Source: an uncultured Bacilli bacterium
GTDB taxonomy: Bacteria; Bacillota_I; Bacilli_A; ML615J-28; CAG-698
DNA length: 64,000 nt
Direction of reading: 5' to 3'
NCBI GenBank assembly: GCA_934096585.1
Contig: CAKOMG010000002.1
Location: forward strand, 71,277-135,276
The position numbers and the translations under genes are program-made. The notes under the pieces are model-generated. The model ran no database searches, was not told the origin of the DNA, and saw nothing but the letters and a program-made list of their open reading frames with translations. Shown here one piece after another: positions 1 through 18,259 of this stretch. Numbering within the stretch: position 1 is the first letter of the stretch; each line of letters opens with the position of its first letter.

Positions 1-1
1 T

Positions 2-223
2 GATTCTTTTGAAGAAGCATTTGAAATTAAAGAATATGGAAAAAAAGTAAAATATATAGAATATCTAACATTAAATAAATATTTACAAAAAGAATCTTTT
101 GGAATATCTATGTGTTATTATAGTAATTTTAATAGTTGCATATTATTCGATGGCGGAATTTCAAAAAGAAATATTATGTTTTCTATTGAAGGTGTTAACG
201 AAATTATTATTAAAGAACTTTAA
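2..223 (+). CDS. 3' end (73 codons) of an ORF that enters from upstream of the window; product unknown
   Basis: Stop-free frame from base 2 to TAA at 221-223 (DSFEEAFEIKEYGKK...NEIIIKEL*). No start codon in the window, so it is absent from the ORF track. Confidence 0.3.
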   Translation, partial: DSFEEAFEIKEYGKKVKYIEYLTLNKYLQKESFGISMCYYSNFNSCILFDGGISKRNIMFSIEGVNEIIIKEL

Positions 224-242
224 AAAATAGGAGTAGACTATA

Positions 243-395
243 ATGAAGAGACAAAGAGGTAATGAAGGAGAAAAATATATTAATTCTTTTCCTAAATTAA
301 AAAAGTGGATTAATGAATGTTTATGTTGTCATGAGAAAGTTATTAATGGTACAAAATTTAGAGAAATTAAGATTATCTATAAGTTTATAGGTTAA
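243..395 (+). CDS. small 50-aa ORF with a CxCC-H motif (MKRQRGNEGEKYINSFPKLKKWINECLCCHEKVINGTKFREIKIIYKFIG)
   Basis: ATG at 243 is preceded by AGGAG (229-233) at good spacing. It is below the ORF-track size cutoff. Function unknown. Confidence 0.3.
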   Translation: MKRQRGNEGEKYINSFPKLKKWINECLCCHEKVINGTKFREIKIIYKFIG

Positions 396-416: not shown

Positions 417-1421
417 ATGATAGATAAAAGTTATGTAACAGTGGTAGAAGACATTAAAAAGCAAATTAGAAGTGCTCAACATAGAGCGATTTTAAATGCT
501 AATAAAGAAATGTTAATTCTATATTGGAATATTGGTAAAGTAATTAATGAAAACAGTACATGGGGAAGTAAATTTTTAAGAAATTTATCTAAAGAGATTA
601 CAAGCGAATTTCCATTCGCTAAAGGTTTTTCAGTTTCTAACCTAAAAAATATGGCTAAATTTTATAGAGAATATTGTGATGTTGAAATTGGCCAGACGCC
701 GTCTGTCCAAATTCCATGGAGCCATAATTTGGAAATTTTAAGGGTAAAATCTAAAGAACAAAGACTTTGGTATATTAATAAAACTATTGAAAATGGTTGG
801 TCAGTAAATGTTTTAGCTCATCAAATTGATACTAATCTTTATGCGCGTCAAATTGAGCAAAAGAAAGTAGCAAATTTTGAAACAAAGCTTCCTAGTTCAC
901 AAAGTGAATTGGCATTAGAAACAATGAAAGATCCTTATGTATTTGATTTTATTGAATTAAAAGAAGATGCTAAAGAAAAAGATTTAGAAGATGCTTTAAT
1001 TAATAATATAACTAAAGTTCTACTAGAATTAGGAAAAGGTTTCGCATTTGTAGGTCATCAATATCATTTAGAAGTAGCCGGTGAGGACTATTATATTGAT
1101 TTATTATTTTATAATATTAAATTAAAATGTTATGTTGTTATAGAACTAAAAATTGGCGAATTTAAACCAGAATATGCAGGTCAATTAAGTTTTTACTTGA
1201 CTGCAATTGATGAGCAAGTTAAAGAAGTTAATGATAATCCAACAATTGGCTTATTATTATGTAGACATAAAAATAATGTTGTTGCTGAATATACCTTAAG
1301 AGATATGAATAAACCAATGGGAGTAAGTGAATATAGAATTAAAGATTACTTGCCAGAAAACTTACAAAATGAATTACCTTCAATTGAAGAGTTAATTACA
1401 ATTGTTAAAAAAGAAATATAA
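417..1421 (+). CDS. YhcG/DUF1016-family PD-(D/E)xK nuclease-fold protein
   Basis: RBS GGAGG precedes the start. The C-terminal 'IDLLFYN...VVIELKIGEFKPEYAGQLSFYL' fits the D...E-x-K restriction-endonuclease-like core. The N-terminal region resembles DUF1016_N. Family assignment is from memory of YhcG-like proteins. Confidence 0.65.
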   Translation: MIDKSYVTVVEDIKKQIRSAQHRAILNANKEMLILYWNIGKVINENSTWGSKFLRNLSKEITSEFPFAKGFSVSNLKNMAKFYREYCDVEIGQTPSVQIPWSHNLEILRVKSKEQRLWYINKTIENGWSVNVLAHQIDTNLYARQIEQKKVANFETKLPSSQSELALETMKDPYVFDFIELKEDAKEKDLEDALINNITKVLLELGKGFAFVGHQYHLEVAGEDYYIDLLFYNIKLKCYVVIELKIGEFKPEYAGQLSFYLTAIDEQVKEVNDNPTIGLLLCRHKNNVVAEYTLRDMNKPMGVSEYRIKDYLPENLQNELPSIEELITIVKKEI

Positions 1422-1442: not shown

Positions 1443-2069
1443 ATGAACAGAAAAGAGCTAAGTCAAAATCATTGGAAATACTATTTGATGCTTGAAAAAA
1501 GATTTATGGAGTCAATAGAATATGTTGAACTTCATAAGGATAATTTTGATGCATTTTCAAATGGGTATGCACTTTTAATTCAAGCAATTGGAGCAGAGTT
1601 AGACACAGTATTTAAAGAGTTCTGTGGTTTTAATACAGATGACCGAAAATACATTAGTGATTATGCGCAACATATTTTAACAATTAATCCAGATATAAAA
1701 AATAATAAGATTATAGTAAAAGACTACGATATTGAGATTCAACCATTTGCCCAATGGGATGCTAGTCTAGCTGCGCAATCATTAAGTTGGTGGACAGCAT
1801 TTACAGATATAAAGCACAATAGATATGACAAAATCAAACAAGCCAATCAAGAAAACGTATTAAATATTTTGGGAGCATTATGTTTAATAGAAATGTTGTT
1901 TTTAAAACAAATTACAGATGGAACAGAAGAATTTGATGTTTTTGATGAATCTTCAAATCTATTTCTTTTTAAAGATTGGTCAACTAAAGCTGTTCCTTTA
2001 AATCAAGCGTTCGCAGTATTAAGTGATATGTTTGATGGTGATGAATCTTCAAAAAAATTTGACGTATAA
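1443..2069 (+). CDS. hypothetical 208-aa cytoplasmic protein, tightly linked to the upstream nuclease gene
   Basis: 21-nt gap after the YhcG-like gene and AGGAAT-type RBS. No signal peptide and no recognisable catalytic motif. No clear HEPN R-x4-6-H motif. Confidence 0.45.
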   Translation: MNRKELSQNHWKYYLMLEKRFMESIEYVELHKDNFDAFSNGYALLIQAIGAELDTVFKEFCGFNTDDRKYISDYAQHILTINPDIKNNKIIVKDYDIEIQPFAQWDASLAAQSLSWWTAFTDIKHNRYDKIKQANQENVLNILGALCLIEMLFLKQITDGTEEFDVFDESSNLFLFKDWSTKAVPLNQAFAVLSDMFDGDESSKKFDV

Positions 2070-2089
2070 ACTTTTTTAATTAAAAATTT

Positions 2090-2884
2090 TTGATTGAGGA
2101 TACTCGTAATAGCCCTGTCGAAACATCATTATACTATTGTAACTCTAGATATTATGATTCAGAAATAAGAAGATGGATATCAATAGATGATATAAATTAT
2201 CTTGATTCAGAAACTATAAATGGCGTTAATTTATACGCATATTGTATGAATAATCCTGTTATGTGTTCTGATTCAAGCGGACATCTACCTAAATGGTTGA
2301 CTGGAATGAAAAGAATTATTACAGGAATAGGAGCTATTGTTGCAGGCGCATTAGTTATAGCCAGTGGAGTTGCATTAGTGCCTATGCTCATTGTAGCAGG
2401 AGTGACGATTGCTGCAGGTGTATTAACAACTGTAAATGGTGTAGCAGATATACAACAATCTATTACAGGTGATAATTTTATTCGCGACAATATATTTAAT
2501 GGAGATCAAAGTTCATATAATTTTTATGCTGGTATTACTGAAGAAATTGCTACAATTGGAAGTATTATTTGTGGCGGTTGGTATAAAGCGAACCAACCAA
2601 GAATTCAAGCCTATAAAAATGTTGATAATTATAATTTTTCTGGAACATTATCGGATTCTACCCATTTAGCCAGACCATACCAACATTCAACATTACTTCA
2701 AAGAAACATTATTAAATATGGAAAAATGGTAAAAGAACCTTCAGGTATTTATAACTTCACGATTGGTGGATCTTATAAAATTGGTTGGGTTTCTTATGGC
2801 GTTGGAAATGTTGGAAGCCATCCAGTTACTTGGAAATTGGTATTAGATATTGGTAAACAAATTATCGAACATGCAGGATTTTAA
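2090..2884 (+). CDS. orphan RHS/YD-repeat core C-terminal junction fused to a polymorphic-toxin C-terminal (CT) domain; truncated toxin-tip cassette
   Basis: Starts at TTG, 3 codons after an in-frame TAA (2081-2083). The N-terminal 45 aa 'LYYCNSRYYDSEIRRWISIDDINYLDSETINGVNLYAYCMNNPVMCSDSSGH' match the conserved end of the RHS repeat-associated core (RYYDPxxGRxISxDP...NLYAYxxNNPVxxxDPxG). That is followed by a Gly-zipper TM pair (GIGAIVAGALVIASGVALVPMLIVAGVTIAAGV) and a 150-aa unknown domain. No RHS repeat body lies upstream. Confidence 0.7.
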   Translation: MIEDTRNSPVETSLYYCNSRYYDSEIRRWISIDDINYLDSETINGVNLYAYCMNNPVMCSDSSGHLPKWLTGMKRIITGIGAIVAGALVIASGVALVPMLIVAGVTIAAGVLTTVNGVADIQQSITGDNFIRDNIFNGDQSSYNFYAGITEEIATIGSIICGGWYKANQPRIQAYKNVDNYNFSGTLSDSTHLARPYQHSTLLQRNIIKYGKMVKEPSGIYNFTIGGSYKIGWVSYGVGNVGSHPVTWKLVLDIGKQIIEHAGF

Positions 2885-2896
2885 TAGGAGGTAGGT

Positions 2897-3340
2897 ATGA
2901 AGATATTTTATAAATTAAGTGATAATTATAATCCGAATTACGTAGAAAAACATGCTGACAACTCTTTTGGATCTGATGAAGTGTATTTTGATTTTCAAGT
3001 TTCGTTAACATCTAATCGTTCATTTATCTTGAATTTTGATATTTACTCAAAGAAATGTGTATCATGTGAAGGCTATCTATTAATCGATAAGAAAACTAAA
3101 AACGAAAATATAGTTATTGAAAAATTCAGTAATGGTGAATTATTAATTGAACTAGAAGATTTTGAAAAAGAAGTACCTATGAAAGAATATTTATTAAATG
3201 GTAAGATTAAATATGATATTAATAAATCACGAATTAGCATAGGCGATATTAATAGTAACGAAGTTATTATGTTTGGGAAAGGTCAATATGCATCCTTTCA
3301 AAATGATAAATTAATTGGTGTAATTATCGATTTTAAATAA
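2897..3340 (+). CDS. putative cognate immunity protein for the RHS-CT toxin (147 aa, cytoplasmic)
   Basis: Starts 12 nt after the toxin-tip ORF with RBS GGAGGTAGG. Small acidic protein in the canonical immunity-gene position. No family recognised. Confidence 0.45.
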   Translation: MKIFYKLSDNYNPNYVEKHADNSFGSDEVYFDFQVSLTSNRSFILNFDIYSKKCVSCEGYLLIDKKTKNENIVIEKFSNGELLIELEDFEKEVPMKEYLLNGKIKYDINKSRISIGDINSNEVIMFGKGQYASFQNDKLIGVIIDFK

Positions 3341-3491
3341 ATAACAAATTACTTTCACAAATAAAATAATGCATTTATTGGTTTTAGTGGTAAAAATGCA
3401 ATGTATGATGTAATTCATATGGTTGGGGAAAAATCATTACTTAGAATGACAGTTCCGTCATTATTTACTGGAGGTATATTAGGAGGAATTT

Positions 3492-3905
3492 ATGCTAGAG
3501 TTAGTTCACGTCTTAACCCAAACGGAAATTTTATTGGAATCTGATATGTTTAGAACTTTGCTTACAGCATATTTGTATATGCTAATAATGCTATTTTTTG
3601 CCTTTTTGAATATCTATTCAACGGATGAATATGAATTCATGCACAACGAACAAAAATGCTGGGAATTTAAACATAGAATGTTTTTTATAATAATGAAATC
3701 TAAAGAAAAACATATAGTTTCAAAGAAAACATTTATATTAGAATTAATAGGATATTTAATATTTATTTTGACAATTACTGTATTTATTTGTTCTCTTAAA
3801 CAAACTGTTACAGTAGCAATAATTTTATTAGCATTTGTTGCAATAATTATTATTACATTTGGCTGTATAACAGGTTGTATGTATAGAAAAATAAAAAAAA
3901 GATAA
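3492..3905 (+). CDS. small integral membrane protein (3-4 TM)
   Basis: Hydrophobic segments LLTAYLYMLIMLFFAFL and LIGYLIFILTITVFICS...AIILLAFVAIIIITFGCI. RBS GGAGG upstream. Confidence 0.4.
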   Translation: MLELVHVLTQTEILLESDMFRTLLTAYLYMLIMLFFAFLNIYSTDEYEFMHNEQKCWEFKHRMFFIIMKSKEKHIVSKKTFILELIGYLIFILTITVFICSLKQTVTVAIILLAFVAIIIITFGCITGCMYRKIKKR

Positions 3906-4219: not shown

Positions 4220-4487
4220 ATACTTTTTATACTATGATTGAAAGGCGGTTTTAATGGAAAACAAAAAAACATTAAAATATACAAAATGTTTTAAAGTACA
4301 TGAAGAAGAATTAACATGGGAATTATTTATAAAATATTTAAATGAAAATATGGAATTTTGTTTTAATTTTAACAATATGACAATTGACATTGCATTTCAT
4401 TAATTGATAAGTCTTCTAGAGAGGCTAATAAACATAAATAATCAAGTAAAATATTAATTAGATAAAAATAAAATTATAGGAGATGTT

Positions 4488-5192
4488 ATGATATTAGGTT
4501 TAGCAGCATATAAGTTCATAAATAATGATATAAAATTTAATATTAGCCAAATAAAAAAAGCAATTTTAACATCTAAAAATATAGATATGTTATGCTTTGG
4601 TGAAGCGTTCCTACATGGGTTTGATGCTTTTAATTGGAATTATGAAAATGATAAAAAAATAGCAATCTCTAAAAATTCTAATATTATGAAAACATTAGAA
4701 CAATTATCTAAAGATTATAATGTTGATTTATCATTTGGTTATTTAGAAATAGATGATGAAAAATTATACTCATCATATGCGGTAATCATTAATGGAAAAT
4801 TAACTTATAATTATAGAAGAATAACTGTTGGATGGAAAGAGTATTCTAAGACAGATTTTCACTATAAAGAAGGTAAAGATATATTAACATTCAATTATAA
4901 AGGTTATGATATAACTATTTCATTATGTGGAGATTTATGGGAATGTCCTAAAAAGTTTAAAAATAATGGTTTGTTACTATGGCCAGTATATGTGAATTTT
5001 ACAATTGAAGAATGGAAAACTGAAGAAATTGAATATGCTAAACAAGCTTTAATTGCCTGTAATAATACTTTTATGATTAATTCGTTAAGTGAAAATCCTG
5101 ATTGTTATGGAGGATGTTTTTGTTTTCAAAATGGTAAAATAGTAAAAAAACTTGATTTTGATATAGAAGGAATTCTCAGTATAATTGTATGA
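4488..5192 (+). CDS. carbon-nitrogen hydrolase (nitrilase superfamily)-like protein, possibly degenerate
   Basis: Glu motif 'MLCFGEAFLHGF' and Cys motif 'ISLCGDLWECP' are spaced as in CN hydrolases. The expected catalytic Lys position reads 'NYRRITVGW' (Arg), so activity is uncertain. RBS GGAG upstream. Confidence 0.45.
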   Translation: MILGLAAYKFINNDIKFNISQIKKAILTSKNIDMLCFGEAFLHGFDAFNWNYENDKKIAISKNSNIMKTLEQLSKDYNVDLSFGYLEIDDEKLYSSYAVIINGKLTYNYRRITVGWKEYSKTDFHYKEGKDILTFNYKGYDITISLCGDLWECPKKFKNNGLLLWPVYVNFTIEEWKTEEIEYAKQALIACNNTFMINSLSENPDCYGGCFCFQNGKIVKKLDFDIEGILSIIV

Positions 5193-6208: not shown

Positions 6209-6700
6209 ATGAAAAGAATAATTGTGTTATTTATGATGCTCATTTTAAATATTTTTATAATAACTGGATGTTCAAATAAAAATTTGTATGATGCGAAAAT
6301 AATTACTAGTAACTACGAATTTAATGAAGATTTTCTAATAAATAACAAAACTTTTGGTGCTGATTCAAATGATGGACATTACATAGACGATGATACGTTC
6401 CCTAAAGAGCGAATGATAATAGTTGATAATGAAACAAGTTTTAATAATACTTTTAAAACCTTTGAAGATATAGATTTCAATAAAAAAATGATTGTAATGC
6501 ATGCATTTACCACTGCATCAAATAGTGAGTATGAGCTAAAAAATATAGAACTTAACGGAAAAAAATTAACAATTGAATATAAAACAAAAAACACAAATAG
6601 AATTAATCCACCTAATGCATCTAAACCTGATACAAAATGGGTAATTGTAAAATTAGATTTGTTAGATATTAATGAAGTAAACTTTGTTTTTTTAGCTTAA
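6209..6700 (+). CDS. small lipoprotein (163 aa)
   Basis: Signal peptide MKRIIVLFMMLILNIFIITGC with lipobox ITGC. RBS AAAGGAG upstream. Confidence 0.55.
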   Translation: MKRIIVLFMMLILNIFIITGCSNKNLYDAKIITSNYEFNEDFLINNKTFGADSNDGHYIDDDTFPKERMIIVDNETSFNNTFKTFEDIDFNKKMIVMHAFTTASNSEYELKNIELNGKKLTIEYKTKNTNRINPPNASKPDTKWVIVKLDLLDINEVNFVFLA

Positions 6701-6730
6701 TAAATTATTTAAGGAGTAAAAAGGAGTATA

Positions 6731-6979
6731 ATTAAAAAGACTATAAAATATATTTTTTTTATATCAATACTTTGTTTTTTATTAATACCTTTTATTAATA
6801 ATAATAAAGTAAATGCCACAGAAATAAATAATAATGAAGTAAGTGTAAAGAATTTTCAAAGTGTTGATAGCATAGGATATTTATATAATTTTGATGGTTC
6901 GCCAGATTATATTTATATTGATTTTATGGGCAAGAATGGATATGTTATTTTTTCAAATGAAAGGAACGATGTGAAATGA
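6731..6979 (+). CDS. small secreted protein with a textbook Sec signal peptide but no canonical start codon (frame opens at 6713; candidate ATT/ATA start at 6728-6733)
   Basis: Frame reads IKKTIKYIFFISILCFLLIPFINNNKVNA|TEINNNEVS..., with a K-rich n-region, hydrophobic core and VNA cleavage site. AAGGAG at 6721-6726 lies 4 nt upstream of ATT 6731. The stop overlaps the ATG of the next lipoprotein gene (ATGA). Confidence 0.3.
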   Translation: MKKTIKYIFFISILCFLLIPFINNNKVNATEINNNEVSVKNFQSVDSIGYLYNFDGSPDYIYIDFMGKNGYVIFSNERNDVK

Positions 6980-7404
6980 AAAGAGTATTAATGATGTGTT
7001 TCATTAATTTTATGATTATAATATGCTTATCTGGTTGTTCAGCTACAAATACTGGTGAAATTATAGAGAACAAACCATTTTATAGTTTGCAAGCAGCATA
7101 TAATAATGAAATGATTTCAAAGAAAAATTTAAGAAAGATAAAACAACAATTAGGAGAAGAAAATTATATTGAGTTAGATGAAAAAATAGCTGATCAAATA
7201 ATTAATGATTACATTGAAGTAAATCCTCAATTTAAAGAAACAAAAGTAACAATAAACAAATATTTAGGTACATATGATGGTGCAGTTGTTCTTATGATAA
7301 GGTCAGATGCACAATTGTTTCAAAATGTTTTAACTACCGAATTAATTTCAGGTATATCATTCAATTATAAAAATAGTCAAAAAATATTAATATGGAAGGA
7401 ATGA
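6976..7404 (+). CDS. small lipoprotein (142 aa)
   Basis: MKRVLMMCFINFMIIICLSGC with lipobox LSGC. Confidence 0.55.
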   Translation: MKRVLMMCFINFMIIICLSGCSATNTGEIIENKPFYSLQAAYNNEMISKKNLRKIKQQLGEENYIELDEKIADQIINDYIEVNPQFKETKVTINKYLGTYDGAVVLMIRSDAQLFQNVLTTELISGISFNYKNSQKILIWKE

Positions 7405-7413
7405 GTATAATAT

Positions 7414-7911
7414 ATGAATAGAATTATAAAAAAAGGAATACTTTTATTTTTTATGATTGTTTGTTCAGGATGCATAAAAGAGACAAATCAATATAAAATT
7501 TCTTTTGAGGGAAAAGGAGGATTTGGTTTTAATGCAGATGATTCTACTTATTGTATAACGGAATTAATCCATTCTAAAGATGAATTAGAGCAATTATCGG
7601 ACAAAATGAATAATGGATATTTTGATGAATTTAGTACTAATTTTAATAATGAAATTGCTCTGAAAGTTAGAAGTTTCGATAAAAATTTTTTTGAAAATAA
7701 TAATTTAATTATATGTGTAATTGATGCAAGTAGTTCATATGATTATTTTATTGATAATTTAGATTTAAATGAAAATAAACTTATTATTAATATTAAAAAA
7801 TCAAAGAAAAAAGGAACTTTTACGGATGAAGCTTATTCTTATTTGTTTATCATTGAAGTGAATAAAAATTATACTAAAGATATTGAACATTTAGAAACAA
7901 AAACTAAATAG
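7414..7911 (+). CDS. small lipoprotein (165 aa)
   Basis: MNRIIKKGILLFFMIVCSGC with lipobox CSGC. Confidence 0.55.
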   Translation: MNRIIKKGILLFFMIVCSGCIKETNQYKISFEGKGGFGFNADDSTYCITELIHSKDELEQLSDKMNNGYFDEFSTNFNNEIALKVRSFDKNFFENNNLIICVIDASSSYDYFIDNLDLNENKLIINIKKSKKKGTFTDEAYSYLFIIEVNKNYTKDIEHLETKTK

Positions 7912-7925
7912 TGGAGGTTAACTTA

Positions 7926-8267
7926 ATGAAAAGAATCATTGTTGTCGTTATGGGTTTACTGTTTATAATGTGTTTAGCAGGATGCAAAAATGAAAAACAA
8001 TATAGTGATGATGGAATAATAATAGAGATAAAATCAACTTATAAAAGCAAATTTTTAAATAAAGAATTTGAACTAAATGATTTTAATTTTCAAAATATTG
8101 AAACATATTCATATTCAAAATGGTATGACAAACAAAATAGAGGTTATATATTTATATATTTAAAGAAAACAGGAAAACAAGAAGTAGAAGAAGCATTGCA
8201 ACATTTTAAACAATTATCTTTTGTAGAAGAATGTGAACAAATGCCTATCATTTCATTAATTGAATAA
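7926..8267 (+). CDS. small lipoprotein (113 aa)
   Basis: MKRIIVVVMGLLFIMCLAGC with lipobox LAGC. The track start at 7911 (GTG) sits inside the GGAGG RBS, so the ATG at 7926 is preferred. Confidence 0.55.
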   Translation: MKRIIVVVMGLLFIMCLAGCKNEKQYSDDGIIIEIKSTYKSKFLNKEFELNDFNFQNIETYSYSKWYDKQNRGYIFIYLKKTGKQEVEEALQHFKQLSFVEECEQMPIISLIE

Positions 8268-9348: not shown

Positions 9349-9887
9349 ATGCGTAAAACTTTTACTTTACTTTTATGTTTATACTTTATTTCTTTTTTGA
9401 CAAGTTGCAATATAACAAAGAAAAAAGAATGTTTGAATATGAAAATTTCGAGAAGTTTCATTACAATAGTAAAATATATTGTTTACCTGATAATTTTAAT
9501 GAAATTTATTCCAAATTCAATTTTTATGGAAATAACCACCAGGTAGGATATACTATTGGAGTATACAACAATATATATAAAACTTGCATTCTTGATAGTG
9601 ATAAAGATGAAAAAATTCTATTTCAAGACAATAGTAGATATTTTTGGTTTAAAGAAGGATTTGTCTTTCCAAATATAGAAGAATCAGTTGTTACTAAATT
9701 ATTAATAGAAAAATTAGCTTCAAAAGGATATATTATAAAAGAAAAAGAATATGCTTTAAAAAATATTTCTATAAATGAATTTTTTACTGAATATGTGATT
9801 AATCAAAATAATAATTCTTTTTTAAATGATGAAAACAACTTTTTGACATTTAGAATTAAGTATATTTATGAAGACTATATTGTTTAA
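9349..9887 (+). pseudogene. lipoprotein gene split by a -1 frameshift at an A6 tract (9421-9426); candidate phase-variable or pseudogenised
   Basis: Frame 1 encodes a lipoprotein signal peptide, MRKTFTLLLCLYFISFLTSC...NITKKK, then terminates. Frame 0 continues as ...KEKRMFEYENFEKFHYNSK... for 150 more codons. Inserting one A in the run (A6 to A7) fuses them: ...LTSCNITKKKRMFEYENF... Confidence 0.4.
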
Positions 9888-11107: not shown

Positions 11108-12562
11108 GTGAATAAAAACAGTATTAAAAAGATTTTGCTAATAGCTATACCTATATTACTAGTAGCTATTATTGTAACACTTGGTATTATTATTGGTAAT
11201 AATATAAAACCAGATCAATATGCAACTATTACTTATGAAGAAAATGGTGGAAGTCATGTTGAAAATAAACGTTATAAAAAAGGAACTAAAATAACACTTC
11301 CTGAAACAACAAAAGAAAATAGGGTATTTAGGGGTTGGTATTTTGATATTGAATTCACTAATAAAAGTGCTGATGAAATAATAATAGAAAATGATATAAC
11401 GTTGTACGCAAGATTTGGAATTAATATAATTCTTGATGCAAATGGTGGAATATCACAAGAATCAGTAATAATTGATGAAGATGGCAAACTAAATAATTTA
11501 GGAATTGCTTATAAAGATGGTTATATTTTTTCTGGATGGTTTTATGATGTAGAATGCAATAAAAAAGTTTGGGAAACAGATGTAATTTATGAAACAATAA
11601 CTATTTATGCGGGATATTCAAAAGAAGCAGTAGGCGTTATAAAAAGATTAAAAAGTGTAAAGGATGTAAGCACAACACCAGAAGTTGAAATATATTCACC
11701 TAATATAGTTTTACATGATGAAAATTTAAATGAATATATTTATGGTGAAAATGCAAGTGGTAATGAAATAAACCTTATGTGTAAGCCTTCAAAAAAGCCA
11801 GGTTACTATATTCTTTTAACAACTCTTGATTTAGTTGAAGGTGAAAATTATTTTATTAAAACACGCACTTCAGATATTAGTTTCTGTAAAGTTGATGATA
11901 ACGAAATAGAGAATGCTGATGAACTTACTCTAACAATCAAAAAAGAAGAACGTGAAGTAATAAAGAAAAATCCAAGTATTCATATTAAAACAATGGATGT
12001 TGCCAAATTGGAAGAAGAAGTTTATACATTTATTGATCAAGATTTAGAAAAACCAGTTAATAGACTAACAATTAAAACGAATGAAATAATTGAAAAAGAT
12101 GCGATTATAACAATTGGAGAATATGATTATCCTCTGGATACTGATTACATTTGTAAAGTAATTAGTGCAAAAACTGAAAAACTCCAATATGTAATTGGAA
12201 CAGAAATTTTTGAAGATACATTTGTAATACTTGATGTTATTACTCCAAATGTTGATGACATATATGAAGAGTTAGATATTTATGGTGATAAAAAAGCAGT
12301 ATTAGAAGGAATGATTGAATTATCTGAAGAAACTGTTATTAAAAATGTTGAGGAAAACGAAGGATTTAAACGAATTAAATCATCTGTTGTTCAGTCGTTA
12401 CAAAAATCAAAATCTATTGCAGAATATGTATCAAATATAAAAGACAAAAATGAAAAAGAACTATTTATGAAACAACTTGCAGGTTTTTCATTTCAACGTC
12501 CAAAAGTAAAAGTAAATATTACAGGTACAGTTTTAGAATTTGAAATAGAACTTGGTGGATAA
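11108..12562 (+). CDS. N-terminal, membrane-anchored part of a giant surface protein, with two Listeria-Bacteroides (Flg_new-like) repeats
   Basis: RBS AAGGAGG and a GTG start. Signal-anchor KKILLIAIPILLVAIIVTLGIIIG. Repeats contain '...RVFRGWYFD...TLYARF' and 'GYIFSGWFYD'. Ends at a single TAA; the same frame stays open for the next 62 codons into the 12749 ORF. Confidence 0.6.
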   Translation: MNKNSIKKILLIAIPILLVAIIVTLGIIIGNNIKPDQYATITYEENGGSHVENKRYKKGTKITLPETTKENRVFRGWYFDIEFTNKSADEIIIENDITLYARFGINIILDANGGISQESVIIDEDGKLNNLGIAYKDGYIFSGWFYDVECNKKVWETDVIYETITIYAGYSKEAVGVIKRLKSVKDVSTTPEVEIYSPNIVLHDENLNEYIYGENASGNEINLMCKPSKKPGYYILLTTLDLVEGENYFIKTRTSDISFCKVDDNEIENADELTLTIKKEEREVIKKNPSIHIKTMDVAKLEEEVYTFIDQDLEKPVNRLTIKTNEIIEKDAIITIGEYDYPLDTDYICKVISAKTEKLQYVIGTEIFEDTFVILDVITPNVDDIYEELDIYGDKKAVLEGMIELSEETVIKNVEENEGFKRIKSSVVQSLQKSKSIAEYVSNIKDKNEKELFMKQLAGFSFQRPKVKVNITGTVLEFEIELGG

Positions 12563-12748
12563 TTACAAATTAACAAATTTAAGATTGAAGTTAGTGTTGT
12601 AATTAGTAATAAGACAGAAGTTAATTATAATTACACAATATGTAAATCAAAAAAAGTAACGTTAAATCCTTTACTTTGGTTTTACACTAATGTACAAGTA
12701 GACTTAAGTAATGACTTTTCAATTTCTTTAGAAGCAAAAGTTGAATTT

Positions 12749-15700
12749 GTGGATAGCGATGAAACTTTGAATAGAATTGATATATCAGAAGAAATTAAAG
12801 AAATTATCGATTTAAATAAGGATGCATATAATAAGTTAACAGAAGCAATTAGTGGTAACCCACTTATTGATGAAGAAGAAAGTGAATTAGAATATGTTGA
12901 TATATTTAATATACAATTAGGTGCTATTCCATTACCACTTCCAGTTATTAGTCTACAATTAGAGTTTAATGTTGTAGGATCATTAGGAGCAAGGGCAGGA
13001 CTTTACATTGAGTTTAATCATCACTATGTTGAGTCTACAACCTTAACAAATGGGACAGGAGAATTTGATGGTAGAAATAGACCAGTAATGCATGATTCAT
13101 TCAAATTCACAAGAGTTACAACAGAAAATGAAATGGATATTGCCATTACATTAAAGGGACAAGTGGGGTTTAGATGTGGTTTAGAAGCTAGGCTATCATT
13201 ATCAATTTTACAATTAAATTCTGTCGCATCTGTCTATGTATCGTTCCGTTTTGGACCATACATTGAGATTAGTGGTTTAGTAAGTTTTCGATATAGTTAT
13301 GATGCAGTAAGAAAAGTAAGTGCAACTCAAGTATATGGAGGAATATACTTAGAGGTTGGATTATTTGTAAATGCTAAACTGGGTGCCAAGTTTTTAGTTT
13401 ATAATATTAATACTGACATATTTGATACAAAAATAAAATTATATGATGTTGGTGATCGTTTAATTCCATTAGAGTTTGCGGAAAAAAGCAATTCTCCAGA
13501 TGATCCATACGTTATAACAGGTAGATATAGTGGTGTAAATATGCGCAATATTGAAATGCGCTATTTAGATATAGTCACTGGTAAAAGAGTAGTTGATAGG
13601 GCGAGTCATAATCAATATGGCGGATGTTTTGATTATGCAATTGAATTTGTGGATGTGCCAGAGTATCAAACAGATGATTATCAAAAATATGTTACTTTAG
13701 CTGGTGGGCAAGCAACATATGTTAGTAAGGCTTATCAACCTAAATCACTTAAGTTTGTTGTTAGACTTACATTAATTCCAAAGAATGGAATGTTAGCAAG
13801 TGGAATAGAACGCATTGTATATATGGAATACTATAACGCTAATGGACGAGATTTAGTGACCAAAAATAGTAAGTTTTTAAATGAATATGAAACAGGTTAT
13901 GGAACTAAGTATTCTGAAGTTATTGATTATCAAACAGTTATTGAAGGAGAGTATGTAACTCCGCCAATTACTGATGCTTCAATGTTTCCTATTCGTCATG
14001 GATACTATCTAGATATCAATGATTTATGGGAAAAATATTATCCTTATTTAGGAGATAAAGTAGATGAATCATGGGATGGAAAATTTAATAAAGTAACATA
14101 TGATGATCTTTCAACAACATTTTATCGTTTAAAATGGAAACAAAGAACATATCAAGGAAACTTCTATATTCCTGATTATGATGTTTCATTAAATGGCGAT
14201 AAATACAAATTAGCTAATAGCTTTAAAATGAATTATGTTCCTGCTTTACAATCATTTATTGTTTATACGGATTCAATGCCAATCCCAACAATAGAAGGAA
14301 AGAAATTTGGCGGCTATGAAAATACAAAAGGATTATCATTTACTAATAATTATTATGTTGTTGATAGCAGTTCTTTGGTATTTAAAGATATTGATGTTGA
14401 AGATAAAACTTATCCGATTGTTAATGTAGATAAAAATAATTATTATTACTTAAGTGGTTTTAATAGTGATAATTTAACATTTGATTTTTATGCTAAGTAT
14501 GAAGATACAGTTGTTTATACAGAAACTTATGTATTAGAAACTACTTCAACAACACGTATAAAACAAGAATATAAGCCATTTGACTATAAAGGAAAAGATA
14601 TTACGCCAATTCCTCCAAAAGAATTTGCCATTGGATCTGAATTTATACATGATGGTAAAACTTATGTTATAACTGGTTATATGGATATTAATAATAATGA
14701 TTATGCTAATAGTCGATATTACAAAGTGGCAGATATGCCTAATGTAGACAAAAATAGAATTTATTATGTTTTATATGAAAGGAAAGGTTTATCAAGTTTA
14801 CCAGTTTACTATATTAATATTAAACTTAATGGTAAGCATATCGGAAGTTATCCTGTCAAAGAAGGAGAAAAAATAGAGTATGCAACTTTAAAAATTAATT
14901 TTGATGATAAATCGATTTTAAGTAATTACTTAGATTATCCTCGTTCTTTATTGGATCAAGTATTAGAAACTGGTTATAAAATTACATGGCCTGATTTATC
15001 TAGTTATCCACAAGATATGCCAAATAAAGATTTTGATATAAATGTAACAGCTGAATTTAATTATAACACTTTATGTGCAAAATTTATATTAGATAATGCA
15101 TTACAATCATTCGTTAATAGTACAGGTGTTACTATTGAAGATGGTAAAACAGTATTAAATATTACGGGAAAAATGTGGAATTATGGTAAAGCGGATGATG
15201 ATGCTTATTATTCAATTCCAAGTTTAAATGATTATTATGATGCACAAACAAATAAATATTATACTTACATAGGCTGGAAAAATGAAAAGGGTGAAATTCA
15301 TTATGCTAATACAAGAATAGCATTTATTTCATCAGAAACTTTTACACCAGTATTTAAAGAAAGTAAAAAAGATGTAATTATTTACTTTGCAAATTATTCA
15401 GATTATGGTTATGAATATTATGAACACATACTTAAGGGTGATTATTATGGCAGAACTTTAAAAGAAGTAATGAAGGAAGCAAACATTGGAATACCATCTA
15501 GAAATGATGCAAATGGAAAAATAAAATATACATTCCTCAATTGGGGAGTTAATATTGATTCTTATATTATTGGAAGTGAAAAAGATTTAAATGGAGGTGT
15601 TAAAACTACACTTACATTTAAAGCTAATTATCAAGAAGAAAAAGAACAATATACACTTACATTTGATGCAATTGATGGCAAGTTTAACAATGGTGAAAGC

Positions 15701-18259
15701 CTAAATATAATAACTGATGAATTTGACAAAGTTATTAAATTAAATGAAATCACACCTAAAACTTATCAAACTGAAGCTGGTACATTTGTATTTGCTTTCT
15801 GGACTACGTTACCTTATGATGCGTCAACAAAAGTTACAGAGTTAGAACTTGAAATTGGAACAAGTGATAAAACATACTATGCATATTATATATTAAATCC
15901 AGCAACAATTACTCTTAATTTTAGTGGTAAAGTAGAAGTGGAAGAAACTGAAGGTACAGGGAATGTTTATTTTAATAACAATAAAAGTGATACTATTTTA
16001 AGTGTTCAAGGCACTTATGGAACTTCTTATTATGTACTTGCTAGTATGTTTAAGGTGGATGTTAAATCAAAAACATATGTTCCAAGTCATTTGAAATGGA
16101 CTGTTGATGGTGTGGAGTATATTAGTGAATTTTATAATGATAATTATATGGCTAGAATTCCATTTGATCATAATGTAGATGTAGAAATAATATTTAAGGA
16201 ACCTACAACTAAAAAAGTAACGATTACATTTATTTCAGATGGTAAATGTTACGATGTTGATGGCAATGAACTGGATGGTATATATTGTAAGGGAGTAATG
16301 GGAGACTTGCGACACTTTACAAACTATACACAGGACTATGGAACAACAGTAAAAGCACCAAATGTTTACTATTATAGTGATAATTATTATGTATTTGATG
16401 GTTATGTAACTACTGTCTTGAGTGATAGTGGGGATGCACAAGTTATTAAAGTAAAAGCAGGAGATGAAATTGTATTTGATGAAGATAGAGTTTATACAGC
16501 TGTATATCTTCATGATACTAATGCCCCTGTTGAAATTACTTTTAAATCAGAACCATATGGTGGAGTAATTGAAGAACAAGACAAAATAGATGGGTTAATG
16601 ATATTCCCTGATGGTAGTGTTGAGATTCAACATTTTGGTATTAATGGTGAATTTATCAAATTTGCTACCGAACCAAAATGTAATGGTAAAAAGTTTATTG
16701 GTTGGACTACTAATGGTAAAGATTTAATAACAATGGAAGAACTTAATAATTTAGTTTATACAGAAAAAGTAACATACTATGCTGTATTTGAAGATAATAC
16801 TGAAGGATTTAACGTAACAGTAAATAGTGGAGTTGGTGAATTTACAGATAATACAAAACAAAAGAAATTAATGAATGTTTTATTTGGTACTTTAACAATT
16901 GATTTAGAAAAACCAATCTATAATATGGACAACATGGTTTTTAGTCATTATGAAGATAAAGATGGCAATCCTGTAACAGCAATAGAACATGATATAGAGT
17001 TATATGCTTGTTATGGAATTGAAATTAATGATATCATAGGACTTAAAAAAGTAAATGAAGCACCTAATGCAAACTACGTATTAACAAAGGACATTACAAT
17101 AGGAATGAGTGCTATGCATATTGGCTTTATTGATACAATTGAATGGGAAAGTATTGGAAGCAGTTCAATTAATGGTTTTTCAGGAAAATTTAATGGTAAT
17201 GGTCATATTATAAGATTTAACGCAAGTGTAGAAACATTAGAAAACTTTGGATTATTCTCTAAAGTAAGTGGATTGGTATATAACTTATATGTAGCTGCCG
17301 CATTCGAATATCAAGGTACTTTAACAAAAGAAGCAGTACTTGGTACGTTTGCTAGAGAAGTTACAACATCTGGAAGAGTTATTGATTGTGGAAGTGGCCA
17401 AACAATTAATTTATCAATTATTACAAATAAAAAAATAACAATTGGTGGTTCAATTGGTGCCAATTATGGTTTGGTTGATGGCTTCTTTAGTTCAATGAAT
17501 GGAACTATACTTTTAGAAAATAATAGTTCAAGTTATATTGGATCAGTAATAGGTGCTAACTATGGAACTGTTAAAAATACAACACAAACAGGTAGAAATG
17601 GTAATATAGCAATTGTATTGCCACGAAGCCCTGAAACTTATATTGGTAATTTAATAGGTTATAATGAAGGATTACTTGAAAATAGCTTTGTTGATAGAAG
17701 TGTGTATATAAGCTTTATGGATGGAAGTAATAGGTATTTAACTGATCAAGTTATAGTTTCAGGAATTGTTGGACTAAATAATGGATTAATTAATGAGTGT
17801 ACTTTCTATAATAATGCCTTTTATTATCAAATAGGTAATATAACAATTGGTCAAGATTTATATTTAGTTTCTTTAGATTATGATAAAACAATGAAATTAG
17901 AAAGATTATCAGTTTATTTATGTGAAGAAACTAGTCAAGGCCCAATGTATATTTTGAAGTATATTATATATATGGATGAAAATACAACTAAGCGTGAATC
18001 TGATGATTGGGAAGAATATACTTATAGTGAATTTGCGAAAGCTTATCCTAATATTTATAATAAAATAAAAGGAATAGATACACTTATTAGTTATAATAAT
18101 ATTTCAACAAATCTACCAAATGGTAAAACAAATAATATTTCGATTGTTGATGAAGTTGGAACGGGAAATATTACTGCTCTTGCAAGTAGTTGTAATTATA
18201 ATGAAATTAAATGGAGTTATTTAAGAAGGTTATACGCAACTAATTATAATAAGTGGTAG
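12749..18259 (+). CDS. giant (1836-aa as called) beta-rich surface protein with C-terminal GLUG-type repeats; probably continuous with the 11108 ORF
   Basis: Same frame as 11108-12562 with only one TAA (12560-12562) between them. No RBS precedes the called GTG at 12749. C-terminal repeats 'GGSIGANYGLVDGFF', 'IGSVIGANYGTVKNT', 'IGNLIGYNEGLLENSFV' and 'SGIVGLNNGLINECTFYNN' match the GLUG motif (G-hydrophobic-hydrophobic-G-x-N-x-G-x-I-x-N). No LPXTG sorting signal. Confidence 0.6.
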   Translation: MDSDETLNRIDISEEIKEIIDLNKDAYNKLTEAISGNPLIDEEESELEYVDIFNIQLGAIPLPLPVISLQLEFNVVGSLGARAGLYIEFNHHYVESTTLTNGTGEFDGRNRPVMHDSFKFTRVTTENEMDIAITLKGQVGFRCGLEARLSLSILQLNSVASVYVSFRFGPYIEISGLVSFRYSYDAVRKVSATQVYGGIYLEVGLFVNAKLGAKFLVYNINTDIFDTKIKLYDVGDRLIPLEFAEKSNSPDDPYVITGRYSGVNMRNIEMRYLDIVTGKRVVDRASHNQYGGCFDYAIEFVDVPEYQTDDYQKYVTLAGGQATYVSKAYQPKSLKFVVRLTLIPKNGMLASGIERIVYMEYYNANGRDLVTKNSKFLNEYETGYGTKYSEVIDYQTVIEGEYVTPPITDASMFPIRHGYYLDINDLWEKYYPYLGDKVDESWDGKFNKVTYDDLSTTFYRLKWKQRTYQGNFYIPDYDVSLNGDKYKLANSFKMNYVPALQSFIVYTDSMPIPTIEGKKFGGYENTKGLSFTNNYYVVDSSSLVFKDIDVEDKTYPIVNVDKNNYYYLSGFNSDNLTFDFYAKYEDTVVYTETYVLETTSTTRIKQEYKPFDYKGKDITPIPPKEFAIGSEFIHDGKTYVITGYMDINNNDYANSRYYKVADMPNVDKNRIYYVLYERKGLSSLPVYYINIKLNGKHIGSYPVKEGEKIEYATLKINFDDKSILSNYLDYPRSLLDQVLETGYKITWPDLSSYPQDMPNKDFDINVTAEFNYNTLCAKFILDNALQSFVNSTGVTIEDGKTVLNITGKMWNYGKADDDAYYSIPSLNDYYDAQTNKYYTYIGWKNEKGEIHYANTRIAFISSETFTPVFKESKKDVIIYFANYSDYGYEYYEHILKGDYYGRTLKEVMKEANIGIPSRNDANGKIKYTFLNWGVNIDSYIIGSEKDLNGGVKTTLTFKANYQEEKEQYTLTFDAIDGKFNNGESLNIITDEFDKVIKLNEITPKTYQTEAGTFVFAFWTTLPYDASTKVTELELEIGTSDKTYYAYYILNPATITLNFSGKVEVEETEGTGNVYFNNNKSDTILSVQGTYGTSYYVLASMFKVDVKSKTYVPSHLKWTVDGVEYISEFYNDNYMARIPFDHNVDVEIIFKEPTTKKVTITFISDGKCYDVDGNELDGIYCKGVMGDLRHFTNYTQDYGTTVKAPNVYYYSDNYYVFDGYVTTVLSDSGDAQVIKVKAGDEIVFDEDRVYTAVYLHDTNAPVEITFKSEPYGGVIEEQDKIDGLMIFPDGSVEIQHFGINGEFIKFATEPKCNGKKFIGWTTNGKDLITMEELNNLVYTEKVTYYAVFEDNTEGFNVTVNSGVGEFTDNTKQKKLMNVLFGTLTIDLEKPIYNMDNMVFSHYEDKDGNPVTAIEHDIELYACYGIEINDIIGLKKVNEAPNANYVLTKDITIGMSAMHIGFIDTIEWESIGSSSINGFSGKFNGNGHIIRFNASVETLENFGLFSKVSGLVYNLYVAAAFEYQGTLTKEAVLGTFAREVTTSGRVIDCGSGQTINLSIITNKKITIGGSIGANYGLVDGFFSSMNGTILLENNSSSYIGSVIGANYGTVKNTTQTGRNGNIAIVLPRSPETYIGNLIGYNEGLLENSFVDRSVYISFMDGSNRYLTDQVIVSGIVGLNNGLINECTFYNNAFYYQIGNITIGQDLYLVSLDYDKTMKLERLSVYLCEETSQGPMYILKYIIYMDENTTKRESDDWEEYTYSEFAKAYPNIYNKIKGIDTLISYNNISTNLPNGKTNNISIVDEVGTGNITALASSCNYNEIKWSYLRRLYATNYNKW

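Follow-up and report, generated by a model that had tools for sequence, protein, structure and literature searches.

A probable displaced RHS toxin tip and its immunity-type gene in a strain-variable island of an uncultured gut Bacilli bacterium

We analyzed a stretch of 64,000 nucleotides (nt) of contig CAKOMG010000002.1 from an uncultured Bacilli bacterium (hereafter the window; 28% GC) and describe a two-gene cassette close to its 5′ end. The first gene is an open reading frame (ORF) at 2090..2884 that starts with TTG and yields a product of 264 amino acids (aa); the second, at 2897..3340, encodes 147 aa and begins 12 nt past the stop of the first. All features of the cassette and of its upstream neighbors lie on the + strand. 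An in-frame TAA at 2081..2083, two codons before the first possible start, closes the reading frame of the first gene, which opens only from 2084, where its translation begins KFLIEDTRNSPVETSLYYCNSRYYD. Codes 11 and 4 both read TAA as a stop, so the choice of genetic code does not affect this closure. A preliminary description of this DNA, made from the sequence alone, had noted that the ORF starts just after a stop and had identified the locus as an orphan RHS C-terminal toxin/immunity cassette. Both statements hold, the second on the basis of a profile match at the junction, a missing YD-repeat body, and a toxin–immunity pair that is conserved elsewhere. We therefore read 2084-3340 as most likely a displaced ("orphan") RHS C-terminal tip with its immunity gene, in which the toxin is silent and the immunity is retained.

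The N-terminal part of the tip is the end of an RHS repeat-associated core. The NCBIfam model TIGR03696 (Rhs_assc_core) gives a match with E=1.3e-14 that scores 54.5 bits against a curated cutoff of 32.5; in the translation from 2084 onward it covers aa 12-67. Of the 76 profile positions, 26-76 are covered, so the match is partial and represents the final two thirds of the core. The retained core amounts to its last 54 codons, or 162 nt (2120..2281, codons E13-G66, ETSLYYCNSRYYD...NNPVMCSDSSG), and forms the junction with the region of the autoprotease motif. A search of this stretch against RHS-core profiles had been proposed as a check, and it gave the match above cutoff just described; the conserved junction that had been pointed out (LYYCNSRYYD...SSGH) is present, with a length of 52 aa rather than 45. 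A profile made from the homologues matched solved structures of Rhs, TcC, and teneurin proteins in the PDB at their C-terminal ends (8h8a, 7q97, TccC3, Tse5, and others), and these matches end at the DPxG motif, the RHS core being the only part matched. The terminal DxxG autoprotease motif (consensus DPxG) is present and reads NNPVMCSDSSGH in the window. Among 42 homologues G66 is invariant and D63 nearly invariant, and the Pro of the motif is Ser here and in several relatives. RHS tips are normally released behind this motif, which is the predicted cleavage site of the present junction.

The tip is an orphan because the YD-repeat shell upstream in the same protein is missing. As had been noted, no YD-repeat body exists anywhere in the 64 kb, and tblastn with the RHS protein of a sister strain matches the window at 2120-2446 only. 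The orphan ORF had no match in a Pfam search, and when the orphan and the 147-aa ORF were compared with Pfam, NCBIfam, and PADLOC, TIGR03696 on the orphan was the sole match.

We derived the domain anatomy behind the junction from an alignment of 42 relatives, read beside proteins bearing other tips. Alignment and hydropathy delimit a conserved pre-toxin module of ~100 aa (about aa 67-165; 2282..2578). It contains a hydrophobic stretch of 48 residues (aa 74-121, nt 2303-2446; maximum 19-residue hydropathy 2.5) made of two helices rich in Gly, Ala, and Ser with a Pro between them, after which comes the motif TGxNFxRD..F.GN..AY..Y..IT..A..GS.ICG. The helices had been described as Gly zippers; the hydrophobic, Gly/Ala-rich stretch is there, but a search for canonical GxxxG found none and only one (G/A/S)xxx(G/A/S)xxx(G/A/S), so that "glycine zipper" is a loose label. 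Likewise, the domain of ~150 aa that could not be assigned at that stage is actually ~50 aa of this module plus a toxin domain of ~100 aa.

On other tips the same module precedes unrelated final domains, such as the TNT NADase (P0085, E=1e-21) and PT-HINT with an AHH/HNH nuclease (P0114, P0115). The final domains recognized among 128 representatives were PT-HINT (17), TNT (8), and one each of colicin E5, a barnase-type ribonuclease, Ntox24, and Tox-HNH. The toxin families found behind the module (TNT, PT-HINT/AHH/HNH, colicin E5, ribonuclease, Ntox24) are known to be cytoplasm-acting. RHS proteins of 1,482-2,350 aa carry the module, and the only recognized trafficking or repeat domains seen here together with it are RHS repeats. 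The ratio of nonsynonymous to synonymous substitution rates (dN/dS) of the module is 0.20-0.23, which indicates purifying selection. Since it is conserved and stands in front of diverse cytoplasm-acting toxins, the hydrophobic module is more likely to be a pre-toxin delivery element than a toxin. Other tips of the same islands likewise open with hydrophobic Gly/Ala-rich segments directly behind the cleavage motif.

The last ~100 aa of the orphan (2579..2881) form the putative toxin domain, which lies outside all curated families. The domain is basic, with an isoelectric point (pI) of 9.66. Across the 42 relatives W166, N170, P172, R173, R197, S202, K211, and G213 are invariant and H263 is nearly so. 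No match to the domain was found in Pfam or NCBIfam, nor in the PDB by profile search. A confident AlphaFold2 model built from 55 sequences (predicted local distance difference test score, pLDDT, 84.3; predicted template modeling score, pTM, 0.73) consists of helices followed by a four-stranded sheet, and a Foldseek search with it against the PDB gave no match with E<0.26. The pI of 9.7, the invariant R, R, K, S, and N, and the near-invariant H make a RelE/BECR-type ribonuclease (RNase) our best guess for the domain, at a little short of an even chance. The class used for comparison was that of the RelE/BECR-fold RNase toxins (MqsR, BrnT, YoeB, CdiA-CT NC101, colicin E5), and no sequence-profile match to a known RNase toxin family was found. 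The first helix of the domain (W..N.PRI.AYK) is shared with a different tip in Barnesiella. Because this helix is common to two Barnesiella tips, strict variability may be confined to the last ~85 aa.

The 147-aa gene is well placed for translation, with a Shine-Dalgarno AGGAGG (2886..2891) within the 12-nt spacer, 5 nt before the ATG at 2897. Its spacing and position behind the toxin had been correctly given; its product had been called acidic, and is only mildly so (pI 5.1; D+E 23 vs K+R 19). The protein is soluble, without a transmembrane (TM) segment, and had no match in Pfam, NCBIfam, or PADLOC. We found 121 database homologues, all ≥56% identical, and one that is 93% identical comes from a metagenome-assembled genome (MAG) labeled "Bacilli bacterium". 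Beyond these, the toxin and the downstream gene are conserved as a pair across lineages: at locus L014 a gene 57% identical to the 147-aa gene lies directly behind a homologous tip whose toxin is 62-64% identical, and in Barnesiella (L015) a downstream gene of 26% identity (E=2e-12) lies directly behind a homologous tip whose toxin is 58% identical. That the pair keeps its gene order in two phyla is the best argument we have that toxin and immunity gene are cognate, and it bears out the earlier view of an orphan RHS tip with an adjacent immunity-type gene.

The two genes of the cassette differ in their expression signals. A Shine-Dalgarno motif precedes the start in 10/10 other genes checked, and that of the immunity gene is AGGAGG. 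Nothing resembling a Shine-Dalgarno motif lies upstream of TTG 2090, and no in-frame internal ATG, GTG, or TTG of the orphan has a credible one; the only weak ones, at 2378 and 2384, are inside the hydrophobic helices. The cassette is therefore a tip without initiation signals followed by a small gene that has them, in keeping with the general model of orphan modules (Poole et al. 2011, PMC3150448), where the tips have no initiation signals but the immunity genes are expressed. Because the shell, the secretion part, and the translation-initiation signal are all lost, the toxin tip is probably not made; the immunity gene, we infer, probably is.

Substitutions within the species were counted against related metagenome contigs, which we found by exact-protein look-up (98.7-100% identical DNA; several from human-gut samples). 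Against one group of these contigs (arrangement A, described below) the toxin has 6 synonymous and 7 nonsynonymous changes and the immunity gene 1 synonymous and 0 nonsynonymous. Among six contigs, the immunity gene shows 0 nonsynonymous changes in L001, L005, L006, and L010 (one of them without any change), is identical in L002, and has two in L013. The orphan ORF is stop-free in 6/6 related contigs compared, with the conserved residues all intact, and its long-range dN/dS is 0.2-0.26. Small as they are, these counts suggest that selection has relaxed on the toxin but still acts on the immunity gene. The preliminary description had proposed a silent tip beside an immunity gene that still protects the cell; the missing initiation signals support the first part, and for the second the gene looks both expressible and constrained.

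Homologues of the tip are numerous. Homologue searches returned 425 matches, and the best 120 are all ≤465 aa, many with N-terminal YD-shell or RHS-repeat matches. An exhaustive search of cluster representatives gave 147 relatives of module plus toxin, of which 11 are proteins of 1,482-2,350 aa with the module near the C-terminus. One of these full-length carriers, P0243 (2,055 aa), has RHS repeats, then the junction, the module, and a toxin of the same family at its end, so the tip found as an orphan here terminates a full-length toxin elsewhere. P0272 (2,248 aa) ends with the module and TNT. A scan of species-representative genomes did not turn up the copy of the species itself and gave a best match of 66% identity, in an Oscillospiraceae MAG. 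In Barnesiella intestinihominis (L015) the homologous tip P0018 aligns with 95% of the query at 58% identity. The order there is a 2,052-aa RHS gene, its immunity gene, the orphan P0018, and a 157-aa gene, with further RHS fragments behind. P0018 has 595 nt at 97.3% identity in common with the 3′ end of the 2,052-aa RHS gene, covering junction and module. By its gene order and shared sequence, L015 is what we would call a textbook orphan array.

The genes upstream of the cassette belong to a similar array. The window opens with the 3′ end (1..223) of a 135-150-aa gene that lies behind another RHS fragment, orphan 1, and is presumed to be the immunity gene of that cassette; in L001 the gene is ORF 9355..9807, which ends at window 223, window position 1 being L001 position 9585. 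It is followed by a 50-aa ORF (243..395) conserved at all related loci, a YhcG/DUF1016 PD-(D/E)xK nuclease gene (417..1421; Pfam YhcG_C 3e-66, DUF1016_N 4.5e-44; PADLOC PDC-S02 1.1e-141), and a 208-aa ORF (1443..2069). The nuclease gene had been recognized earlier by its PD-(D/E)xK fold. PDC-S02 is a PADLOC candidate single-gene defense family, and the gene lies within the orphan array. The 208-aa ORF adjoins YhcG at every locus read, is split into two ORFs in L005/L012, and had no match in Pfam, NCBIfam, or PADLOC.

Two arrangements of this region were observed among the related contigs. In arrangement A (L001, L007, L010; 98.7% identical DNA) the following lie in one orientation: a 1,614-aa RHS gene, a 67-aa TM protein, an ankyrin-repeat protein, small ORFs, a truncated serine recombinase, orphan 1 (398 aa with a YD-shell match in L010), the 135-aa gene, the 50-aa gene, YhcG, the 208-aa gene, the studied orphan, and the 147-aa gene. 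The stop codon of the RHS gene lies ~6.0 kb before window position 1 and ~8.1 kb before the junction of the studied orphan. In arrangement B (L002, L003; 99.97% identical over the window's first 6 kb) a tRNA-Gln and housekeeping genes stand directly upstream of orphan 1. The single 100%-identical contig (L004/L011) ends 2,095 nt upstream of the window, and its first 326 nt match arrangement A, not B. The cassette thus persists in strains with and without a nearby full-length RHS gene, and the toxin/immunity island around it, in a low-GC and uncultured Bacilli bacterium of the human gut, varies between strains.

Several further observations concern this island. A tRNA-Gln(CTG) lies directly before the orphan array in some strains, and in other strains a segment with the full-length RHS gene and the truncated serine recombinase is in its place; the regions concerned, all upstream of the window, are L002 7700-7776, L001 6336-7888, and L004 1-330. 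The boundary region carries repeated AAAAAGACTTTTTGTA-like motifs, and several contigs break there; the repeats and the contig breaks suggest that the segment is mobile or recombinogenic. The tip of the sister strain's full-length RHS protein (L001 19..3844) is hydrophobic over much of its length after ...DPSGH and is followed by the 67-aa two-TM protein; by sequence the two resemble a toxin that acts on membranes and an immunity protein seated in the membrane, a contrast to the tip studied here. Behind the immunity gene, homology to arrangement-A strains stops at window 3824, so the island 3′ of the cassette is strain-variable. Window 3477-3766 has, besides its collinear place, a second match in arrangement-A contigs (290 nt, about 96% identity). 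Window 4241-4402 (49-aa ORF 4254..4403) is a 5′ fragment of a 101-aa gene which in L001 lies just behind the full-length RHS gene, the 67-aa TM protein, and the ankyrin gene. Also in the variable island is a 234-aa ORF (4488..5192) with a weak carbon-nitrogen hydrolase match to the N-terminal part of the profile only (E=4.7e-6). Further on, four successive small ORFs at 6209..8267 (163, 142, 165, and 118 aa) have lipoprotein-like N-termini, with a hydrophobic stretch followed by G-C or S-G-C, and a sub-threshold match to DUF4969 is their sole family match; they may encode surface lipoproteins or be additional immunity genes of orphans. A 1,836-aa ORF at 12749..18259 was considered as the missing RHS body and was rejected: it has no RHS domains and is part of a Flg_new surface protein. 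Together with a 484-aa ORF it makes up one giant Listeria-Bacteroides-repeat (Flg_new) surface-protein gene (11108..18259; 2,383 aa in sister contigs). Relative to L008, one nonsense substitution breaks this gene in the window, with a TAA stop at 12560-12562 in place of the Glu codon GAA.

The preliminary description had assigned the junction to recombinational tip swapping, with the orphan as a possible reserve tip, which our data do not support. Over its 162 nt, the junction has 66% identity to its counterpart in the full-length RHS gene of the sister strain, where no exact match exceeds 16 nt, and 61% identity to that of orphan 1. So short and diverged a stretch would serve homologous recombination poorly, in contrast to the one in Barnesiella, and judged from these sequences a "reserve tip" role is doubtful.

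One strain, L013, does carry the tip joined to a piece of shell. Its protein P0001 consists of the 140-aa YD-shell fragment of orphan 1 continued in frame by this tip (99.2% nt identity). The breakpoint lies exactly at nt 2120, on the 5-nt sequence GAAAC, which is the left edge of the homology. GAAAC flanks a ~3.06-kb block (tip 1, its immunity gene, the 50-aa ORF, YhcG, and the 208-aa ORF) that is absent from L013. P0001 is still an orphan, without an N-terminal trafficking region. Two histories would fit: the block was inserted and displaced the tip (C-terminal displacement), or the block was deleted by microhomology. We set aside homologous recombination as the origin of P0001, since a breakpoint at the edge of the homology is indistinguishable from an insertion or a C-terminal displacement.

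Taken together, these features suggest a mode of action for such tips. As part of a full-length RHS protein, the tip would be enclosed in the YD-repeat shell and freed by autoproteolysis at the junction. The hydrophobic module of the freed tip would then insert in the membrane of the target cell and take the toxin domain into the cytoplasm, where the toxin would most probably cleave RNA as a RelE/BECR-type ribonuclease. In the present genome, the 147-aa protein would shield the cell against neighbors that deliver this toxin.

Other explanations of the locus can be weighed against these data. The earlier proposal that the tip is itself membrane-acting, forming pores or depolarizing the membrane through its Gly/Ala-rich helices in the manner of Tse5-CT, EsxX, and the ionophoric CdiA-CTs, draws on the continuous hydrophobic stretch of ~48 aa rich in Gly, Ala, and Ser, on weak, sub-threshold similarity of a few family members to the SseC and holin families, and on the existence of glycine-zipper toxins of this kind (PMC12744356, PMC11630599). 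It was not borne out: the same helices front unrelated cytoplasm-acting domains elsewhere (TNT, AHH/HNH, colicin E5, ribonuclease), behind them stands a basic domain of its own (~100 aa), conserved and with a set of polar positions invariant, which as the variable last part is the better candidate for the toxin, and the helices lack canonical GxxxG. Furthermore, the cognate 147-aa protein is soluble, whereas a small TM protein follows the hydrophobic full-length RHS tip of the sister strain. We consider a membrane-acting tip very unlikely. The chance that the ORF is a C-terminal piece of an unrelated membrane protein with a coincidental RHS-like stretch is practically nil; the hydrophobic helices speak for it and nothing more, and it is refuted by the TIGR03696 match above the curated cutoff, the >400 homologues, many with RHS_repeat or YD-shell matches, the profile matches to solved Rhs ends, and the presence of the tip on full-length RHS proteins.

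Another alternative is an internally expressed toxin-antitoxin module, in which low-level toxin from an internal promoter and start codon would regulate the cell's own growth. The orphan and main Rhs tips of Salmonella Typhimurium are transcribed from internal promoters, are toxic, and act as type II toxin-antitoxin loci (PMC7043789), and here the orphan ORF is intact in all six contigs with a low long-range dN/dS. However, the orphan offers no internal in-frame start with a credible Shine-Dalgarno motif, and a product from the weak ones at 2378 and 2384 would begin within the hydrophobic helices. In addition, the toxin gathers amino-acid changes within the species where the immunity gene does not, and the low dN/dS at long range may also stem from times when the sequence was part of full-length genes. 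Hence a toxin-antitoxin module appears unlikely. A decaying relic, a cassette without current function whose recently orphaned immunity gene is unused, would account for the few core codons left (54), for a junction so diverged from the sister strain's full-length gene that rescue by recombination is unlikely, for several database relatives that are short or cover part of the tip only (e.g. P0024, P0042), and for an island that is rich in fragments and varies between strains. Yet the ORF is stop-free in every contig examined with its conserved residues intact, the immunity gene has a perfect ribosome-binding site and no nonsynonymous change in most comparisons, and the cassette is kept whether or not a full-length RHS gene is near, so we regard a mere relic as improbable. 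A silent tip with a retained, protective immunity gene thus remains the reading we prefer. Several points weigh against it. The within-species substitution counts are small; the promoter and terminator scan is uninformative in DNA of 28% GC (36 promoter-like sites vs 34.3 expected); the AlphaFold2 model of the immunity protein is too poor to use (pLDDT 46); strains of arrangement B (L002, L003) have no RHS gene within 10 kb, and the full-length one that had been suggested just upstream of the window may be missing from this particular strain; and the delivery role of the module draws only on co-occurrence and analogy.

As a type of locus the cassette is nothing new, since orphan toxin/immunity cassettes are well established at RHS and contact-dependent inhibition (CDI) loci. 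The new elements are modest: a toxin/immunity family that is uncurated and occurs in Bacillota as well as Bacteroidota of the gut, and a conserved pre-toxin module with two helices. The occurrence of the conserved pair in both phyla, with several loci from the human gut, suggests that the pair has moved between them. Because it stands before NADase, RNase, and DNase tips, the two-helix module is a concrete candidate for the means by which RHS toxins cross the cytoplasmic membrane of the target, especially in Gram-positives. A bolder proposal joins two claims, namely that the module is an undescribed, self-contained membrane-translocation device serving many RHS toxins of gut Bacillota and Bacteroidota and that the last ~100 aa are a new RelE/BECR-like RNase family with a new immunity family; we put this combination forward tentatively, as possible rather than probable. 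The strain polymorphisms also offer a clean natural record of island rearrangement, with the RHS gene present or absent and the tip either fused to a shell fragment or separated from it by a 3-kb block.

The module and the cassette can each be compared with known systems. The published description of PT-TG (PF14449) includes a conserved stretch of 15 residues, predicted to be a loop, with Gly, Asp, and Arg (PMC13483458). The module resembles it in its pre-toxin position in polymorphic toxins and in a loop with T-G, R, D, and G (TGxNFxRDxxFxGN); however, PT-TG is described as probably disordered and is tied to WXG, LXG, and ALF domains, whereas the module has two predicted TM helices. We rejected membership of the module in PT-TG, since the Pfam model PF14449 matched neither the window protein nor any of ~190 family members, the cutoffs being E≤10 (window protein, 9 relatives), E≤1 (55 members), and E≤0.001 (128 representatives). 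The T6SS DNase Tde1 requires N-terminal GxxxG repeats for translocation into prey cells (PMC10240207), and its glycine-zipper region has in common with the module a hydrophobic character, an abundance of small residues, and a place on the N-terminal side of a cytoplasm-acting enzymatic domain. In CdiA-CTs, too, a cytoplasm-entry domain lies in such a place, and crossing of the target's cytoplasmic membrane depends on it (PMC9424206). The module has no sequence similarity to either region and sits between the RHS cleavage site and the toxin, and its role would be theirs by analogy.

For the cassette as a whole, a close counterpart is Barnesiella L015, which has a homologous junction, module, toxin, and downstream gene in the same order. 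It differs in belonging to another phylum and in that its orphan abuts the full-length gene, with the whole junction and module common to both. Compared with the textbook orphans, which keep long near-identical stretches, the core in the window is very short (54 codons) and has only 66% nt identity to the resident gene. In addition, the YhcG nuclease and 208-aa genes are wedged between the orphans, and the host is a low-GC gut member of the Bacilli and not a proteobacterium. The organization is otherwise that of the orphan rhs-CT/rhsI and cdiA-CT/cdiI modules (PMC3150448; PMC7043789): a tip fragment that keeps the junction motif and lacks translation-initiation signals, a small gene with a ribosome-binding site close behind it, and, in the sister strains, an array lying downstream of a full-length gene.

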